Shown here: positions 3,407-18,978 of the stretch, piece after piece
How positions within the stretch are numbered: position 1 is the first letter of the stretch
How the letters are laid out: every line of letters starts with the position of its first letter
Origin: a virus
Lineage: Duplodnaviria; Heunggongvirae; Uroviricota; Caudoviricetes
IMG/VR virus record: IMGVR_UViG_2740892449_000008
Location: 1 to 22,584 of that record
Length of the DNA stretch: 22,584 nt
Direction: 5' to 3' (one strand)
Program-made: the position numbers and the translations under genes
The notes under the pieces: generated by a model
Seen by the model: only the letters and a program-made list of their open reading frames with translations
What the model was told of the DNA's origin: nothing
Databases searched by the model: none

Positions 3407-3449
3407 GATTACTTAACTGGCAAAAAAACATCCTCACTAATTGGAGCCA

Positions 3450-4541
3450 ATGGATACACGCATGTCAGACATTCTAATTACTTATGATGAACGGAAAGAT
3501 AAATTTGAATCCTATGCCCTTACTCTTAAATCGTTATTAACCACGTTAATTCGCAATGAAAAAATTTCAATTCACTCACTAGAATCAAGAGTTAAAACAA
3601 AAAAAAGCCTTGAAGGCAAGATTAATAAAAAGGGAAAATACAAGTCTATAGATGATATTACTGATATCGTTGGTATCAGGATCATCACACATTATGCTGA
3701 TGATGTTGATAAGATAGCTGCTATAGTTGAAAAGGAGTTCACCATTGACCAAGAGAACTCTATTGATAAAAGAACCTCAATTGCGCCTGATAAATTTGGT
3801 TACTTATCACTTCATTATATAGTAACTTTAAGCTCAACCAGAACAAACTTAAAAGAATATGAAGTATATAAAAACATCAAAGCCGAATTACAAATACGAT
3901 CAATCCTTCAGCATGCCTGGGCGGAAATTGAACACGACATTGGTTATAAGTCGGCCACAGGACTGCCTAATGAAATAAGAAGATACTTTTCACGCTTAGC
4001 TGGTCTTTTAGAAATGGCCGATGATGAATTTATTAAAATCAGAAAAAAGATTTCTGAACGGCAGAAAGAGGTTGCAAAAGAACTAGAGCAAGGAACTAGT
4101 GATTCAGCTTTAGATATTTTCACTTTGGATGAATTCTTAAACACAAGTCGAATTATGAGTGAACTTTCAGAAGAGATAAAAGAAAAAACAGGAATCACAG
4201 TACATGGCCGATACAAGGATAAAGATTTGGGATACCTACTAAATAGTTTAAAGCTAGCCAACATAACTACAATAGAACAGCTCAATCAAAAACTCTCACA
4301 AATGAAAAAGCAGATCGTAGAGAGAATATTCTGCTTCGGAGAACTATTTATTGATTATTGCAGAGAAACCCCCATGCCAAAAGAAGTTCTTTTGAGTTAT
4401 TTATGTCAAATTATCGTTGCGTTTCAAAACTCACCTTCGTTAGAATCTGAATTTAATAACAAAGCAGGTTTAAATCTGAAAAACAGCGATATCTCCGATT
4501 TTTTCTCGAATATAAGAGAAAACATAAGCACACAACCTTAG
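3450..4541 (+). CDS. RelA/SpoT-homologue synthetase-fold nucleotidyltransferase with uncharacterised C-terminal domain; candidate fused toxSAS (CapRel-like) defence protein
   Basis: Intact ORF (track 3441..4541 from TTG; ATG at 3450 or 3462). Motifs seen: RVKTKKSLEGK, DDITDIVGIRII (D-x-x-G-x-R), AELQIRSILQHAWAEIEHD (E-x-Q-I-R...H-x-W-A-E-x-E-H), which together are the RelA_SpoT synthetase signature. No hydrolase domain and no adjacent small ORF. Strongly AT-rich, and opposite in orientation to the flanking tail genes. Confidence 0.75.
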   Translation: MDTRMSDILITYDERKDKFESYALTLKSLLTTLIRNEKISIHSLESRVKTKKSLEGKINKKGKYKSIDDITDIVGIRIITHYADDVDKIAAIVEKEFTIDQENSIDKRTSIAPDKFGYLSLHYIVTLSSTRTNLKEYEVYKNIKAELQIRSILQHAWAEIEHDIGYKSATGLPNEIRRYFSRLAGLLEMADDEFIKIRKKISERQKEVAKELEQGTSDSALDIFTLDEFLNTSRIMSELSEEIKEKTGITVHGRYKDKDLGYLLNSLKLANITTIEQLNQKLSQMKKQIVERIFCFGELFIDYCRETPMPKEVLLSYLCQIIVAFQNSPSLESEFNNKAGLNLKNSDISDFFSNIRENISTQP

Positions 4542-10818: not shown

Positions 10819-10991
10819 TGTCAGGAGTCCTGAATAGTGATTAGAGGAGTCACATGTCGGCATCAGTTTCCCGACGATGCGCATCCTCCGCCATCAGTCC
10901 CGGATGGCTTATCACTGACACAACAGCACCTTAGCGAATCGCGGGGCGCGACTCAGTAGCCTTGCCGTGTATTCATCACGGCGAGGTATTC

Positions 10992-12764
10992 ATGACCATC
11001 ACCACAGACACCACTCTTTTACACGACCCGCGTCGTCATGCGGCGCTGCTGTACTGGCAGGGGTTTTCCGTGCCGCAGATTGCCGCCATGTTGCAGATGA
11101 AACGCCCGACGGTGCAGAGCTGGAAACAGCGCGACGGCTGGGACAGCGTTGCCCCCATCAGCCGTGTCGAAATGAGTCTGGAAGCGCGGCTGACCCAGCT
11201 CATCATCAAACCGCAGAAAACCGGCGGTGACTTCAAGGAAATTGACCTGCTGGGACGTCAGATTGAACGACTGGCACGGGTCAACCGTTACAGTCAGACC
11301 GGCAACGAGGCAGACCTTAATCCGAACGTCGCTAACCGCAACAAAGGCGGGCGACGCAAACCGAAAAAGAATTTTTTCAGTGACGAGGCCATCGAAAAGC
11401 TGGAGCAAATTTTCTTTGAGCAGTCTTTCGACTATCAGTTGCACTGGTATCGCGCCGGGCTTGAGCACCGCATCCGCGATATCCTGAAATCCCGCCAGAT
11501 TGGCGCGACGTTTTATTTTTCCCGCGAGGCGCTGCTGCGCGCCCTGAAAACCGGCCATAACCAGATTTTTCTGTCGGCCAGTAAAACGCAGGCGTATGTG
11601 TTCCGCGAATACATCATCGCCTTTGCCCGGCTGGTTGACGTTGACCTGACCGGTGACCCGATTGTCCTGGGCAATAACGGCGCAAAACTGATTTTTCTCG
11701 GCACCAACTCCAACACCGCACAGAGCCATAACGGCGACCTGTACGTCGACGAGATTTTCTGGATCCCGAATTTTCAGGTACTGCGTAAGGTGGCATCAGG
11801 TATGGCCTCACAAAGTCACCTGCGCTCGACCTATTTCTCCACCCCGTCCACGCTGGCGCACGACGCCTACCCGTTCTGGTCGGGTGAACTGTTCAACCGG
11901 GGACGCGCCAGCGCCGCCGAACGCGTGGAAATCGACGTCAGTCATAACGCCCTTGCCGGTGGGCTTCTCTGTGCGGACGGCCAGTGGCGGCAGATTGTCA
12001 CCATTGAGGACGCCCTGAAAGGTGGCTGCACGCTGTTCGACATTGAGCAGCTTAAACGCGAAAACAGCGCCGACGATTTTAAAAACCTGTTCATGTGTGA
12101 ATTTGTTGACGACAAGGCGTCGGTGTTCCCGTTCGAGGAGCTGCAACGCTGCATGGTCGACACGCTGGAAGAATGGGAAGACTATGCGCCGTTTGCCGCG
12201 AATCCGTTCGGCTCCCGCCCGGTATGGATTGGTTACGACCCGTCACACCGTGGCGACAGCGCCGGATGCGTGGTACTGGCACCGCCGGTGGTGGCCGGTG
12301 GCAAATTCAGAATACTTGAGCGTCACCAGTGGAAAGGCATGGACTTTGCCACTCAGGCGGAATCCATCCGCAAACTCACCGAAAAATACAACGTCGAATA
12401 CATCGGTATTGATGCCACCGGCCTTGGTGTCGGCGTGTTCCAGCTCGTGCGCTCGTTCTATCCCGCCGCGCGCGATATTCGCTACACGCCGGAAATGAAA
12501 ACCGCAATGGTGCTCAAGGCAAAAGACGTTATCCGCCGTGGCTGTCTGGAATATGACGTCAGCGCCACCGACATCACCAGCTCGTTTATGGCTATCCGCA
12601 AGACCATGACCAGCAGCGGACGCAGCGCCACCTATGAGGCCAGCCGCAGCGAGGAAGCCAGCCACGCCGACCTCGCCTGGGCGACCATGCACGCCCTGTT
12701 AAATGAGCCACTCACCGCCGGTATCAGCACCCCGCTGACATCCACCATTCTGGAGTTTTACTGA
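10992..12764 (+). CDS. P: Terminase large (ATPase) subunit P
   Basis: From the ATG at 10992: MTITTDTTLLHDPRRHAALLYWQGFSVPQIAAMLQMKRPTVQSWKQRDGW..., about 590 aa, intact, matching recalled P2 gpP. Divergent from O. Confidence 0.9.
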   Translation: MTITTDTTLLHDPRRHAALLYWQGFSVPQIAAMLQMKRPTVQSWKQRDGWDSVAPISRVEMSLEARLTQLIIKPQKTGGDFKEIDLLGRQIERLARVNRYSQTGNEADLNPNVANRNKGGRRKPKKNFFSDEAIEKLEQIFFEQSFDYQLHWYRAGLEHRIRDILKSRQIGATFYFSREALLRALKTGHNQIFLSASKTQAYVFREYIIAFARLVDVDLTGDPIVLGNNGAKLIFLGTNSNTAQSHNGDLYVDEIFWIPNFQVLRKVASGMASQSHLRSTYFSTPSTLAHDAYPFWSGELFNRGRASAAERVEIDVSHNALAGGLLCADGQWRQIVTIEDALKGGCTLFDIEQLKRENSADDFKNLFMCEFVDDKASVFPFEELQRCMVDTLEEWEDYAPFAANPFGSRPVWIGYDPSHRGDSAGCVVLAPPVVAGGKFRILERHQWKGMDFATQAESIRKLTEKYNVEYIGIDATGLGVGVFQLVRSFYPAARDIRYTPEMKTAMVLKAKDVIRRGCLEYDVSATDITSSFMAIRKTMTSSGRSATYEASRSEEASHADLAWATMHALLNEPLTAGISTPLTSTILEFY

Positions 12765-13796
12765 TGAGCAAGAAAAAAGGGAAAACACCGCAACCTGCGG
12801 CAAAAACAATGACCGCCAGCGCCCCGAAAATGGAGGCATTCACCTTTGGCGAGCCGGTGCCGGTACTCGACCGCCGTGACATTCTGGATTACGTCGAGTG
12901 CATCAGTAACGGCAGATGGTATGAGCCGCCGGTCAGCTTTACCGGTCTGGCAAAAAGCTGCGTGCTGCCGTGCATCACAGCTCGCCGATTTACGTCAAAC
13001 GTAATATTCTGGCCTCGACATTTATCCCGCATCCGTGGCTTTCCCAGCAGGATTTCAGCCGCTTTGTGCTGGATTTTCTGGTGTTCGGTAATGCGTTTCT
13101 GGAAAAGCGTTACAGCACCACCGGCAAGGTCATCAGACTGGAAACCTCACCGGCAAAATATACCCGCCGTGGCGTGGAGGAGGATGTTTACTGGTGGGTG
13201 CCTTCCTTCAACGAGCCGACAGCCTTCGCACCCGGCTCCGTGTTTCACCTGCTGGAGCCGGATATTAATCAGGAGCTGTACGGCCTGCCGGAATATCTCA
13301 GCGCCCTTAATTCTGCCTGGCTGAATGAGTCGGCCACGCTGTTCCGCCGCAAGTATTACGAAAATGGCGCACATGCCGGATACATCATGTACGTTACCGA
13401 TGCCGTGCAGGATCGCAACGATATCGAAATGCTTCGCGAAAACATGGTCAAGTCGAAAGGCCGCAACAACTTTAAAAACCTGTTTCTCTATGCCCACAGG
13501 GGAAAGCCGACGGCATTAAAATTATCCCGCTCAGTGAAGTGGCAACGAAGGACGATTTTTTTAATATCAAAAAAGCCAGCGCCGCAGACCTGCTGGACGC
13601 GCACCGCATCCCTTTTCAGTTGATGGGCGGCAAGCCGGAGAACGTCGGGTCGCTGGGTGATATTGAGAAAGTGGCAAAGGTCTTTGTCCGCAATGAGCTT
13701 ATCCCGTTACAGGACAGGATCCGCGAGATAAACGGCTGGCTCGGCCAGGAGGTCATCCGCTTTAAAAACTACTCACTGGACACTGACAACGGCTGA
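12764..13796 (+). pseudogene. Q: Portal protein Q, interrupted by two -1 frameshifts (near 12959 and 13496)
   Basis: Three successive frames (12764.., 12970.., 13539..13796) together give a P2 gpQ-like protein. Inserting one C in 'aaagctgcg' and one C in 'tgcccacag' restores ...LAKSLRAAVHHSSPIYVKR... and ...LYAPQGKADGIKIIPLSEVATKDDFFN.... Confidence 0.85.
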
Positions 13797-13801
13797 ACAT
13801 C

Positions 13802-13823
13802 GCCGCCTGCGGGCGGCTTTTTT
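13802..13823 (+). terminator. Rho-independent terminator after Q
   Basis: GC stem gccgcc / ggcggc with loop tgcg, followed by TTTTTT; 6 nt after the Q stop codon. Confidence 0.55.
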
Positions 13824-13965
13824 ACACCCCTTCATCACGCCCTCACACACTCACCACCGCACAAAACAGCCCGCAGACACACCAACGCCCCGGCGCACAA
13901 TCTAAACGCCATTACGACGTGCTGAGACGCTGAAAAAATAAAATCAGCACCACCGCCAGCGCGCA

Positions 13966-13984
13966 GTGCTATCCCCGCCTCGCC
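13966..13984. other. cos cohesive-end sequence (P2-type 19-mer), internal to the prophage
   Basis: The minus-strand reading of 13966-13984 is GGCGAGGCGGGGATAGCAC, one mismatch from the recalled P2 cohesive end GGCGAGGCGGGGAAAGCAC. It lies next to Q, as in P2. Confidence 0.6.
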
Positions 13985-14101
13985 CGCCCGCTTAATGGGG
14001 CGGTTTTAATGCGGGTGCATAACCACTTCTTACCCACATCAATTCTGGTCAAGCCAAGCAGTACAGCTTATGATTTCAAGATGCAAACTCATGCAGCAAT
14101 G

Positions 14102-15231
14102 TTAAATTCTGCATCCATCGGTTTGAAAATGTGATCCGTTTTTCGAATTCAAACTCAACTCTGTTTGACTCTTTTGAACATTAATAGTTTTACCAGTAAG
14201 GACATCCAAAACCCCTGCAGCAACAGCCTGCGCCAATTTACAAGGCACAGCATTCCCTATCTGACGCCAAATTGACGAATTTTTCCCCACAAAGACATAA
14301 TTACTCGGGAATGTTTGAATCAAAAGAGCCTCATCTATCGTTAGTCGACGTAAACGACTAGGTACATCGTGCATATCTTTTGGCTCACCACCATTCATTA
14401 GATGATTATGATAAGTCTCAACATAACTTGTTGAGCCATCATAAAGGTGTTCTTCATCAATAATTGGTGTCCTATTCCCCCCATAGAAGCAGCTATAGTT
14501 GAAGCATACCCATTCGGGTTAATTGGTCTTCCCTGCCCGTTAAACATCATTCCCGCGTAAGGTGACTTCCGTAATACTGGCTTAGCAGCATTTGTAATCC
14601 TTGCATTACAGACTCTTGAATTGTTTGGATTACCCGCTCGCCCTAAAGGCCGAATAATCTCACCAACTGTGGGCGAAAGATATTGGTATTTTTTTATCGC
14701 CGCCTCAACTCGTTTCACATCATTTTCGGAACGAAACCCTATAAAAAACATACGTTCCCTATTCTGAGGAACGCCAAAATCTTTAGAATTCAGCACCAGC
14801 AAGGCTGAACGATAGCCTGACTTTTCAGCCATCTTAAACAGTTCACACCTAACTGGTTCAAATTTGGACAACTGTGCTAAAGCCTTAACATTCTCCATAA
14901 CAAAGCATTCTGGTTGAATTATATCCACCGCCCGCATGAATGACATAACCAGCTTACTACGTGGATCATGAGCGTCCATTTTCCCTGCCACAGAAAATCC
15001 TTGGCATGGAGGCCCACCAAAAACACAACCTATATTTTTCAGCCCAGACAATTCACTTAGCATCTCATCAATATCACCACAAAAAACAGGTGATTCATGA
15101 TTAAGCTTAAATGTATCACATGCATCCTTATCTATATCATTGGCCCAAACTGTTCGGAACCCGGCATTAGAGAAACCGACATCCATCCCTCCTGCCCCAG
15201 TAAATAAGCTCACCGCTGAAATTTTGTTCAC
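14102..15231 (-). pseudogene. DNA (cytosine-5) methyltransferase, -1 frameshift in a C6/G6 run at 14466-14471; start uncertain (GTG 15231 or TTG 15270/15294)
   Basis: C5-MTase motifs in order: LFTGAGGMDVGF (motif I), GGPPCQGFS (motif IV), MENVKAL (VI), QNRERMFFIG (VIII), then after the frame change RRLTIDEALLIQTFPSNYVF and QIGNAVP (IX/X). Adding one G to the ggggggaat run joins ORFs 14398..15294 and 14102..14398. AT-rich. Confidence 0.85.
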
Positions 15232-15314
15232 TTCTTTAGCACCAATTATTCGATTTTGGAATAAAACCAATGATAGGTAAGGATCGACACACAATCAATC
15301 ACCTTCTAAACCAC

Positions 15315-15584
15315 ATGGCAAAACGACAACCAACTATACATGATCATAGATACAGGTGCCTAGTCCAGCTTCTCACCAAACTACGCAAAGAAGCTTCTCT
15401 TTCGCAGTCAGAATTGGCCATTTTTCTAGGATTATCACAATCAGATATATCTAAAATCGAAAGCTTTGAAAGGCGATTAGATGCTTTAGAACTATTTGAA
15501 TTATTAGAGGTGGTTGCAAGCCGATTAGGTCTACCAATGGATATCTTACTAAAGGACACCTATGAAAGTATTAGTAAATCATGA
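15315..15584 (+). CDS. Small HTH (XRE-type) regulator, likely R-M controller (C) protein
   Basis: About 89 aa from the ATG at 15315 (alternative ATG at 15270). Helix-turn-helix signature SLSQSELAIFLGLSQSDISKIE. Divergent from the MTase, and its 3' end overlaps the start of the next ORF by 23 nt. Confidence 0.65.
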   Translation: MAKRQPTIHDHRYRCLVQLLTKLRKEASLSQSELAIFLGLSQSDISKIESFERRLDALELFELLEVVASRLGLPMDILLKDTYESISKS

Positions 15585-16615
15585 GCAAGCCTATAATGTA
15601 ATTATAAATGCAATCAACGATGCAAAAAAATTAACTGATTACAAAACAAATAATCAATGGGTCTCCATTCAAAATGTAATTTTAGGCACCCACCTTACAT
15701 ACAGATATATACTTATTACTGGTTTACTTGCAAAAGCAACAGACCCTAGAGTAAACCCTCTGGCTTTACAAGCTAATGCCCCCGTAGACGGAGCCTATGA
15801 TGCAAGAAGTTTATGTCATTCGGTAATAGTAGCAAAGTAGAAGGCCCATATTTAGAGGGTAAGTTAGGCGCATCAAATGAGCCATTTCTAAATAAACCTG
15901 CTCGTTACATGCTCCACTCCTCTGATAACCCTGTGCGCAGAGGAAATGATAAGGTTTTACAACAACTTTCAATTGATATATTACATGCAGCAACAACCCA
16001 AACCTTAGCTTATGAAATGCTTGTTATTGCATTATATTTTACCCTACAGCGAACCAATAGAGTTATAACGCCGAACTCAATTAATTTTGATTTCCATAAG
16101 ATTATTTATAATATTATATCTCATCCTTGTGATGGAGAAACATGCGCGATTGCTGCCGCAATTTCGTTACATTTATTAGGTGAACAAAGAGGATGGATAA
16201 TAAAAGCACATCCCGTCAATCAGCCGGTAGCTCCTCAAAAGAGATACTGGACATAGATGTATATCATGACGATATAGTTTTCCTTTCTATAGAAGTGAAA
16301 GACAAACCATTTAATTATCAAGATGTTAATCACGCCGTTTCAAAAGCATCTGCATCCGGGATTTCAAAAGTTATCTTCCTTAAAGGGCCAAGAGCAACAA
16401 ACTTAGATATTGATGAGTCTCTTGCGATTGAGAACGCTGCGACAAAAGGTGTTTCACTAAGCTTTAGTGACGTCATGACATTCACAACAACATGTTATGC
16501 GTTATCGCCACTATTAAGTAATGACAGAATAATAGATTTCATAAATAACACTTTAAAAGACATCAGAGCTAAAGATAGCACTATAGAATACATACAATCC
16601 ATATTTAAAAATTAA
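15562..16615 (+). pseudogene. Putative type II restriction endonuclease (PD-(D/E)xK), read through two -1 frameshifts
   Basis: Three consecutive ORFs (15562..15840, 15813..16256, 16193..16615) in frames 0, -1 and -2 form one ~351-aa gene if two bases are restored. AAGGA SD 6 nt before the ATG at 15562. Candidate catalytic motif D-x7-E-V-K in DIVFLSIEVKDK. Context: C gene upstream, C5-MTase divergent. Confidence 0.5.
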
Positions 16616-16622
16616 TACTCCC

Positions 16623-16657
16623 GGGACAATATAGTTCACAACTACGTTGTCCCTTTT
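16623..16657. terminator. Hairpin plus T/A run between the convergent endonuclease ORF and gene A
   Basis: gggacaa (16623-16629) pairs with ttgtccc (16647-16653), followed by ttttaaaa; lies between the two convergent stop codons. Confidence 0.4.
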
Positions 16658-16708
16658 AAAACAGTCAAGCAATTGCATTATATTAATTATTTACTTTTTA
16701 TCACAATC

Positions 16709-18978
16709 TCATAATTCATACGCTCTCCAATCACATATAACAGGATAACTGAAGCTTCTCCCGTCGTAATTTACACTTGCCCCACGCGCCAGCGCCTCAA
16801 GCTCCCATCGCTGCGGCCTGATACCGTTCTGAGCAAGGTCAACGCGGATACGGGTGATTTGCAATCGTTCAGACCTGGTCAGTCTGGCCGATGGTGCTAT
16901 TTCATGTGGTTTTAACGGGCTTCCGTTTCTTTGCTGACGACTTGGCGTTCTCCGACCGTGTTTTAATGCACCCCTGAGCGCCCTCACGACCTCCGGGTCA
17001 TTCCATTCGATAACACCGTCATCAACCAGATTAAGCACTGCTGCGGCATGCTCAGAAGGTGTGGGAGCCGGTAACGAAGCATCACCACCGGTGAGCTTTC
17101 CACAGTTATTGACAGGACTCCGAGGCGCGGCGATGCCGCTTTTTAAAGTCAAAGGCTCAACGACCGGAACTTTCGGCACAATGCGCCAGTCCGTCGTTCT
17201 GGTGATATGAATATGACGCGCGCCGAGATGCGGCGCGTAAATGCCGACCACTCTCTCGACTTCTTCCTCGTACTCGTTAACGTCATCCGACGGGCTACGG
17301 GCGACCCTGACAGTCTGACAATCGCGCGGGACATTTGCCCCGCCCTGCGCGCTGATATACAACGCAAAATCACCACTGTCTGCAGCGGCGCGTGCAGCCT
17401 CGACGCGCTCGTCAAACTCATCAGCAATGCTGACGCCGCGCGGCAATTTGCGTAGTTCACGGTAAGCCCCCATTGTCGGCAGGCCAACCGTTTTAAATTG
17501 CGGGATGCGCCACGTTGACGCCCATGCGGTAACAGCCGCTGCAGTGTCTTTCAGCGGCCTGCCGGTGTCGTTATCGAGCTGACCATCCAGTGCATAGCCG
17601 TCGATGTTTTTTGAAATGTATTTCGCGATATATCCCGCAGCACCGCCCCGGTTAAGGTGTTTTGCCTGAAAACGGTTTCGCGCAGCTCCTCTTTCGTCTC
17701 CATCCTCTTTGAGCGCGTAGCGACGCATGATTTCGATAATCTGGTTACGCTGGCGCGAATTACAAAAAAGCATTATATGCCAGTGCGGCGTTCCGTCGTG
17801 GTGTGGCTCGACGACACGCAAACCGTAGACCTGTAAATCATTATCCTTGAATGCCGTGCGCATCAGGCTCCAGATACGGCAGAGATAACGCTGCGCATCC
17901 TTTGGATTAAATGCCTCATCGTTCCAGCCGTGATTTAGCTGGACGGTTTTACTTTCGCCTTTTCCAACCTGACGTGTCGGGTGATACTTTGACGGCGCGG
18001 TCAGCGTGATAAACATCCCCACATCACCCTCTGCTGCGGCGTAACGCTCAATACCGGCAATGGTGTTCATCAGCTCCATCCGGCGAATTTCAGGATTAGA
18101 AATACTGCCCATCACCTTACTGATAAGGTCGATGCGCTCGCCGGTTTCCCTGTTTTCGAGATCACACGATTTAAGAAATTCCAGATTTGCCTGGCGGCGT
18201 GCACGCACATCACGAATGGCATGTTTACTGGCATAAGGAGAACGGTCTTTATTGACCTCCCCGACAGCAATCAGTAACGCCTCATGCCAGCGCATACGCT
18301 GGCCTTTAAGCTGATGAGTCCACCACTCATCGTTAAACAGACGGGCAATGGCAGAATATGCCTGCCTCGTGGTCATCTGTCCTTTACGGTATTTTTTCCA
18401 GTAGAGAGGGGAAATATTGAAAGCACGTGCAGCGCCAGCAACATGACCATACAGGTGAGCCTGCGCCTCATCCGTAAACAGCGATTCTTTTTCGCCATGC
18501 GCATCCACCCAGGCATCGCAGAGTTCCTCATACATCATGAAAAGCTGCGATGAGATACGGGCGGCAAACTTTTTCAGCTCCTTGTCATTCATTCCAGGCA
18601 GGCGCGCATAGTGGTCACGCTCTGCCAGAAACAGCAACGACGCGTCGGTGTTCATTTCATGGCGCTGATTCACACGCTCAATACGCGGCCATAAACGACG
18701 CTGAAAAGTGGATGTGAGGAAATAAAACCCGTGTACCGGACTTTTATTGCGCCGGATGTAGTCATAGCGTGAAGTAAACAGCGAGCGCAAAAAGTAAGGC
18801 AGGCGGTTAATCGTGGATAAAACACCTTGCACCTGACGCATCTCGTCACGTGTAAGAGGTCTTTCTCGCCCGACGGCCTCGCGTGGCGCGTTCCATGCAT
18901 AAGCACCGGTAAACGTCTCACCGGTGCCTGCGGCAAATGCTGACGGAGGGACAAAACGCCCGGAGCTTTAACGGCCAT
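16709..18978 (-). pseudogene. A: Replication initiation protein A (rolling-circle nickase), -1 frameshift about 20 nt after the start codon
   Basis: ORF 16709..18841 (MRQVQGVLSTINRLPYFLRSLFTSRYDYIRRNKSPVHGFYF...) matches recalled P2 gpA from residue ~47 onwards. The ATG at 18978 reads MAVKAPG and then the frame slips; inserting one base in 'gctccggg' restores MAVKASGRFVPPSAFAAGTGETFTGAYAWNAPREAVGRERPLTRDEMRQ. Confidence 0.85.

Follow-up and report, generated by a model that had tools for sequence, protein, structure and literature searches.

The AT-rich block at positions 14,102–16,615 of a 22,584-nucleotide Caudoviricetes sequence (IMG/VR record IMGVR_UViG_2740892449_000008; "the window" below is this whole stretch) is very probably the EcoT38I type II restriction-modification (R-M) cassette, which a P2-like (Peduovirus) Escherichia coli prophage carries as defence cargo in its cos-proximal gpQ-gpA hotspot. 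The EcoT38I system, its controller protein, two crystal structures, its carriage on a P2 prophage and the hotspot itself are all previously on record; the title of Kita, Kawakami and Tanaka (J Bacteriol 2003), with its wording 'defective P2 prophages', assigns EcoT38I to a P2 prophage. What is new here is minor and consists of a caveat about frameshifts in the window, a corrected catalytic aspartate, corrected start codons and a candidate operator.

We assigned the restriction endonuclease gene R (ecoT38IR) to positions 15,562–16,615 on the plus strand. The preliminary description had read an ORF of ~351 amino acids in this region; no such ORF exists in the window as given, and the gene is instead split over three ORFs in three frames (15,562–15,840, 15,813–16,256 and 16,193–16,615). 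Its proposal that this third gene encodes the cognate restriction endonuclease nevertheless proved correct, since all three fragments match consecutive parts of the Pfam family PF09566 (RE_SacI) with scores of 98.9, 79.1 and 59.2 bits, against a gathering threshold of 19.3 bits. Restoring one G at 15,831 and one at 16,222, at each of which a GG of the intact gene is reduced to a single G, yields a protein of 351 residues that is identical at 350 positions to the 'EcoT38I restriction endonuclease' of PDB entries 7E8R and 7EDB. The sole difference is Y97F, the window having tyrosine where the PDB entry and most E. coli copies have phenylalanine. PADLOC classified the protein as REase_II (E = 8e-252), and a search of NCBIfam returned no model matching R. 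The system of E. coli TH38, represented by 7E8R/7EDB for R and 2EF8 for the controller protein, is thus alike in both proteins, in gene order, in its P2-type prophage setting and in host species, and differs from the window in the one substitution and in the three 1-bp deletions that interrupt M and R in the latter.

The family to which R belongs is large (at least 1419 homologues), and SacI-family endonucleases (PF09566) show significant matches over the whole protein and share with R the invariant elements NEPFLNKPAR, D231/D233 and E245-x-K247. Across 21 homologues of 38–79% identity, residues D231 and D233 (within LDIDVY), E245, K247, D248 and K249 are invariant, pointing to a probable PD-(D/E)XK catalytic core, D231, D233...E245-V-K247, at 16,250–16,300 on the plus strand. 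Of the D-x7-E-V-K motif noted earlier, the E245-V-K247 portion is invariant, while the aspartate assigned to it (D238 or D239 in HDD) varies among the same 21 homologues. The catalytic aspartate is most likely D233, which would put the core D233...E245-V-K247 at 16,256–16,300. Downstream of R, a hairpin formed by GGGACAAU...GUUGUCCC and followed by UUUU (16,623–16,657, plus strand; −15.7 kcal/mol, z = −4.6 relative to shuffled sequences) has the form of an intrinsic terminator and probably ends the C-R operon.

SacI recognises only GAGCT^C. The specificity of EcoT38I is presumably the degenerate GRGCY^C, making it an isoschizomer of BanII and HgiJII, and a specificity previously described as unknown would in that case already be on record; the papers that we consulted do not state the EcoT38I recognition sequence. 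Both Pfam and PGAP label the nuclease merely 'SacI family', a label that would also fit a SacI isoschizomer restricted to GAGCTC or an enzyme of some other specificity, yet the near-complete identity of R to the deposited EcoT38I endonuclease, together with the complete identity of its controller to C.EcoT38IS, leaves no room for a different enzyme and makes such an assignment scarcely credible.

The controller gene (ecoT38IC, 15,315–15,584, plus strand) encodes an Xre-type helix-turn-helix (HTH) protein of 89 residues, in agreement with the divergent ~89-aa HTH protein reported earlier. Over 84 residues it is 100% identical (84/84) to PDB 2EF8, 'Crystal structure of C.EcoT38IS', and it matches Pfam family PF01381 (HTH_3). 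The ATG at 15,315 is backed by conserved MAKRQ or MARRK N-termini among the homologues and by divergence of the sequence upstream of it. C ends at 15,584 and the R start codon lies at 15,562, so that the two genes overlap by exactly 23 nt (15,562–15,584), as had been observed. An AlphaFold2 model of C adopts a five-helix Xre fold (pLDDT 89.5), and a Foldseek search with this model returned, after 2EF8 and two uncharacterised XRE proteins, C.BclI, C.Esp1396I and C.AhdI as the nearest solved structures. These structural neighbours and the match to 2EF8 confirm the HTH protein as a controller, and in PMC2632904 C.EcoT38I is one of the REBASE controller proteins listed with a conserved upstream motif. 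In sequence, similarity to other C proteins is weak, with E values of 0.02–0.06 against the PDB and 2e-4 against the PADLOC Control_protein model. The folds are similar (TM 0.56–0.76), and the C.PvuII, C.AhdI, C.Esp1396I, C.BclI and C.EcoO109I/C.Csp231I systems likewise place a small Xre-type HTH gene upstream of R, co-transcribed with it and divergent from M. They have a dyad operator in the intergenic region, for which the EcoT38I locus offers a candidate.

The third component, a C5-cytosine methyltransferase gene (M, ecoT38IM), occupies 14,102–15,231 on the minus strand. Its ORF pieces match PF00145 with E values of 4e-51 and 2e-12, and the product also matches TIGR00675 dcm (E = 7e-59) and the PADLOC class MTase_II. 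All five motifs named in the preliminary description were located on the minus strand: I (FTGAGG, 15,204–15,187), IV (GPPCQGFS, 15,015–14,992), VI (ENV, 14,898–14,881), VIII (QNRER, 14,766–14,752) and X (GNAVP, 14,257–14,243). The gene runs through two frames, 15,294/15,231–14,398 and 14,398–14,102, which sets motif X out of frame with motifs I–VIII. The break is a deletion at 14,476, where the window has a tract of six C residues and intact copies have seven; with one C restored, M comprises 376 residues from a GTG at 15,231. We place the starts of M and R at this GTG and at the ATG at 15,562 because both reproduce the positions given in a REBASE-based table of rare codons (PMC6456624), namely AUA at codon 15 of R and GGG at codons 12 and 15 of M; the PGAP start of M, a TTG at 15,294, does not match these positions. 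With M starting at 15,231, the M-C intergenic region spans 15,232–15,314 (83 bp), the same interval as in the preliminary description. In some E. coli copies, the annotated C-terminal end of M lies 40 nt (13 codons) earlier. We also considered whether the split M might be a functional two-subunit methyltransferase of the M.AquI type and rejected this, because 26 residues of the variable region are lost through the frameshift and seven of nine copies have no such split.

Every complete homologous locus has the same layout, with M divergent from C followed by R, in keeping with the controller-type architecture that had been recognised from the gene order, and a small HTH gene directly upstream of R, co-oriented and overlapping, is likewise found in homologous loci L004–L012. 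One of these, L010, has a fragmented M, and its contig covers just the first 81 nt of the downstream gene. An R partner is present in every related locus, and the methyltransferase is thus no orphan.

The surroundings of the cassette are those of a P2-like prophage. It is preceded by genes for terminase P (10,962–12,764) and the portal protein Q (12,764–13,796, frame-broken), and by a Rho-independent terminator-like element at 13,802–13,826 on the plus strand, with a GC stem and a T run, that probably corresponds to tQ, since P2 has tQ at the matching position relative to Q and cos. A cohesive-end sequence, GGCGAGGCGGGGATAGCAC, lies at 13,966–13,984 on the minus strand and agrees at 18 of 19 positions with the P2 cosL sequence; shuffled sequences gave no matches. 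The P2 annotation places cosL at 1–19, adjoining Q. Between ~14,025 and the gene A stop codon at 16,709, homology to other P2-like phages is interrupted, which delimits an AT-rich cargo cassette of 14,026–16,708. The R-M block begins ~115 bp beyond cos, between the portal gene Q and the replication gene A, and has a GC fraction of 0.36–0.43 as compared with 0.53–0.58 in the flanks, so that its described position between cos and gene A and its AT-rich character both hold.

This interval between cos and A had been equated with the defence slot of P2 and is indeed documented as the cos-proximal gpA-gpQ defence hotspot of P2-like phages, in which P2 carries old and tin (PMC9122126, Rousset et al. 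2022; PMC13586616). The window and the P2 old/tin locus (Rousset et al. 2022; NAR 2026 gkag898) share the slot from Q and cos to gene A and the AT-rich nature of a 1–5 kb cargo, and differ in the cargo itself, which is old/tin in P2 and a classical type II R-M system here. In other P2-like prophages, the gpQ-gpA slot is filled by a reverse transcriptase or by cargo of the ComEC type.

Within the window, neither M nor R has an intact ORF (two frames for M and three for R), and function of the system in the window's strain is therefore not assertable. The nearest relative is a prophage of E. coli O39:H21 Res13-Lact-PEB08-01 (NZ_CP062865.1), which is 99.8% identical, differs further by an IS66 insertion in its portal gene and carries an intact copy of the module, for which the PGAP annotation lists a methyltransferase of 397 aa, an HTH protein of 104 aa and a 'restriction endonuclease, SacI family' of 351 aa. 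Relative to this prophage, the whole window shows 19 substitutions, one insertion and 13 single-base deletions. All but one of these deletions shorten a run by one G or C. Genes of every class are affected, and the portal gene (12,957 and 13,492), gene A (18,964) and others are also broken. Between 13,800 and 16,710, the deletions at 14,476, 15,831 and 16,222 are the sole differences, and the larger interval of 13,746–17,773 contains the same number of deletions, three, and not one substitution. On this pattern of three deletions without a substitution, we consider assembly error of the homopolymer type the likelier cause; the three frameshifts most probably do not exist in the real locus, which would then be intact.

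The alternative that the frameshifts are real, leaving a dead M and a dead R in a degrading P2-like prophage, is one that we regard as unlikely. The ORFs are broken in the sequence as given, a state lacking both R and M would be viable, Kita et al. 2003 use 'defective P2 prophages' in their title, and 98% of P2-like prophages carry at least one pseudogene (PMC13586616). The mutational spectrum nevertheless argues against decay: indels are almost as numerous as substitutions (14 versus 19), all are of a single base, they concentrate in G/C runs across every gene class, and neutral decay would not typically leave a 4-kb stretch with three deletions but not one substitution. Defence genes, moreover, make up only ~2% of P2 pseudogenes (PMC13586616). 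The comparison of nine copies bears on both readings. The two deletions in R are unique to the window, while the shortened C tract of M is common to the window and FORC_082 only, the remaining seven copies having C7. This recurrence counts against an error, as a real slippage allele could produce it, and the annotation of M as frameshifted in both FORC_082 and NCTC9088 can be read in favour of decay. FORC_082, however, has a portal gene that is also annotated as frameshifted and an intact R, and NCTC9088 combines a different M frameshift with an intact R. Given the GRGCYC sites of the E. coli chromosome (5 in 50 kb), a cell with M off and R on should not survive, and the M frameshifts in these two genomes therefore point to sequence error, which argues for assembly error in data of this kind over decay.

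The same observations weigh on the idea that the poly-G/C tract of M (14,470–14,476) is a contingency locus that renders the methyltransferase phase-variable. That the change from C7 to C6 occurs in two otherwise different copies speaks for it, yet a tract of seven bases is short for slippage, seven of the nine copies have C7, the M-off, R-intact combination in FORC_082 should kill the cell, and homopolymer miscalls offer a simpler cause; we judge phase variation highly improbable. Assembly error in an otherwise intact EcoT38I locus remains the reading that we prefer.

The preliminary description had proposed a search of the M-C intergenic region for a C-box operator, and comparison of homologous loci revealed a candidate there: the dyad TTATTC-GATTTTG-GAATAA at 15,246–15,264, with a core of TATTCGA-TTT-TGGAATA at 15,247–15,263 centred on 15,255. 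A repeat search at default stringency missed this dyad, which surfaced solely through the comparison of loci. It is conserved in 12 loci, with 8–10 of 10 arm positions matching; the C proteins of these loci are 40–100% identical, and in the alignment of their M-C intergenic regions the information content averages 1.69 bits per position inside the dyad and 0.46 outside. The outer pair covaries, with TTATTC...GAATAA in some loci and ATATTC...GAATAT in others. The distance from the dyad to the M start codon is 15 nt in the window and 5 nt in Klebsiella and Herbaspirillum loci. Taken together, these features suggest that the dyad is likely the C-box.

In a consensus scan, a promoter-like site for M is found on the minus strand at 15,270–15,298 (−35 TTGATT, 15,298–15,293; −10 TATCAT, 15,275–15,270), and at an equal offset the minus strand has TATAAT in locus L020 and TACAAT in L021. 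Were M transcribed from this site, the dyad would span roughly positions +1 to +20 of its mRNA. For the C-R strand, the scan found no promoter with at least 9 of 12 consensus matches; the dyad itself holds a conserved TTGGAA on the C-R side, which could be the −35 element of a C-R promoter.

The candidate operator differs from those of other controller-protein systems. It is a single dyad of 17–19 bp, as opposed to the 35-bp double C-box of the PvuII type, and it abuts the start codon of M, unlike the operators of the other systems. It is also distinct from motif 8, ACTAAGGA-T-TnCTTAGT, the operator of EcoO109I and Csp231I, which is absent from the M-C intergenic region. The single dyad may define a distinct class of controller-protein operator, in which one site for a C dimer would both shut down M and gate C-R, in contrast to the double C-boxes of PvuII and AhdI; we put this forward tentatively and consider it rather doubtful.

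The components suggest the following mechanism. M.EcoT38I would protect host and prophage DNA by m5C methylation, and R.EcoT38I, as a PD-(D/E)XK enzyme of the SacI family, would cut unmethylated GRGCY^C (the presumed specificity) in incoming DNA. C.EcoT38I and R would be translated from one transcript through their overlapping genes. A C dimer may bind the dyad at 15,246–15,264, where it would cover both the beginning of the M transcript and the −35-like TTGGAA of the C-R side, and binding at this one site would repress M and control C-R, coupling the two. The outcome would be the usual delay of R, with no endonuclease in a newly entered host until M has done its work.

Sites for the presumed specificity are missing from the prophage: the window contains no GRGCYC where 10–18 would be expected, and the prophage would thus be intrinsically immune to its own enzyme if the presumed specificity is right. 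We rejected this avoidance as independent proof of specificity. P2 and two P2-like prophages that lack the cassette and differ in cargo also have no GRGCYC site; the pattern ranks only 6–7 of 160 palindromic patterns for avoidance, alongside other GC-rich palindromes that are equally avoided (GGCGCC, GCCGGC, CAGCTG and CGGCCG); and a 50-kb stretch of the E. coli chromosome shows depletion too (observed/expected 0.28). A lesser possibility is that only the complete lack of GRGCYC sites in their genomes allows P2-like phages to host EcoT38I R-M.

Among 5426 complete E. coli genomes, 20 carry the module in complete and intact form. Flanking sequence is 90–97% identical to many P2-like phages, with matches covering only 13,800 (the start of the query) to ~14,025 of the window, and a megablast search found the cassette in none of 50,697 phage records and hence no isolated phage as a carrier. 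Diverged M-C-R cassettes of 67–75% nucleotide identity were found in four settings: the gpQ-gpA slot of Citrobacter P2-like prophages, beside ogr at a prophage end in Yersinia aldovae, beside tail gene S on a metagenomic contig, and an Enterobacter ludwigii locus without a phage gene within about 4 kb.

As the system, its structures, its carriage by prophages and the hotspot have all been described, the discovery value of this locus is small. The earlier inference from raw sequence was correct on the architecture and on the identity of the nuclease. The window derives from an indel-prone assembly, and ORF-based calls anywhere within it need care. For an understudied group of C proteins, a concrete candidate operator is now in hand.

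Relative to the nearest relative, the prophage of E. coli O39:H21 strain Res13-Lact-PEB08-01 (NZ_CP062865.1), we found 13 single-base deletions distributed throughout the window (positions 877, 1257, 6586, 6630, 8508, 9981, 12957, 13492, 14476, 15831, 16222, 18964 and 21836). In all but one of the 13, a G or C was lost from a run, and the portal gene, gene A, the methylase (M) and nuclease (R) genes of the EcoT38I cassette and further genes are frameshifted as a result. Such a pattern resembles the errors of long-read assembly, and every ORF call in the window therefore needs checking. Separately, the portal gene of this relative is interrupted by the IS66-family element ISCro1 (L003, the locus from that strain, 11,5xx-9,2xx), which is absent from the window; its insertion point corresponds to window positions ~13535-13542.

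M.EcoT38I is likewise annotated as frameshifted, with R intact, in two complete E. coli genomes, FORC_082 and NCTC9088. Because a broken M alongside an intact R should be lethal to its carrier, these frameshifts are probably assembly errors too. Two annotations of M.EcoT38I, differing at the C-terminal end, were observed among the E. coli copies of the cassette (L013, L016 and L017 versus L001 and L014). The stop lies 40 nt earlier in several E. coli genomes with no indel involved, presumably owing to a substitution that introduced the earlier stop codon.

A second AT-rich cargo island (3441-4541, plus strand; GC 0.34) separates tail gene S from baseplate gene V; in P2 this slot is occupied by orf30. 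The 366-aa ORF in the island carries a RelA/SpoT nucleotidyltransferase domain (PF04607, E 2e-21) and matches the PADLOC candidate PDC-S33; comparison with PDB sequences placed small alarmone synthetases nearest and gave no close CapRel match. The ORF is unbroken in the window (A8 at 3599) and split in NZ_CP062865.1 (A7).

Palindrome counts covering the whole window, P2 and two P2-like prophages lacking the cassette (L024 and L025) showed few or zero copies of GGCGCC, GCCGGC, CAGCTG, CGGCCG, GRGCYC and CCGCGG. These GC-rich palindromes were also depleted in a 50-kb host-chromosome sample, to a lesser degree than in the P2-like genomes.

Diverged cassettes comprising M, the controller protein (C) and R adjoin ogr at a prophage end in Yersinia aldovae (L006/L007) and tail gene S in a metagenomic contig (L008), and that of Enterobacter ludwigii (L011) lacks phage-gene neighbours over about 4 kb. 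Together, these placements suggest that the M-C-R cassette moves among P2 hotspots and out of phages.
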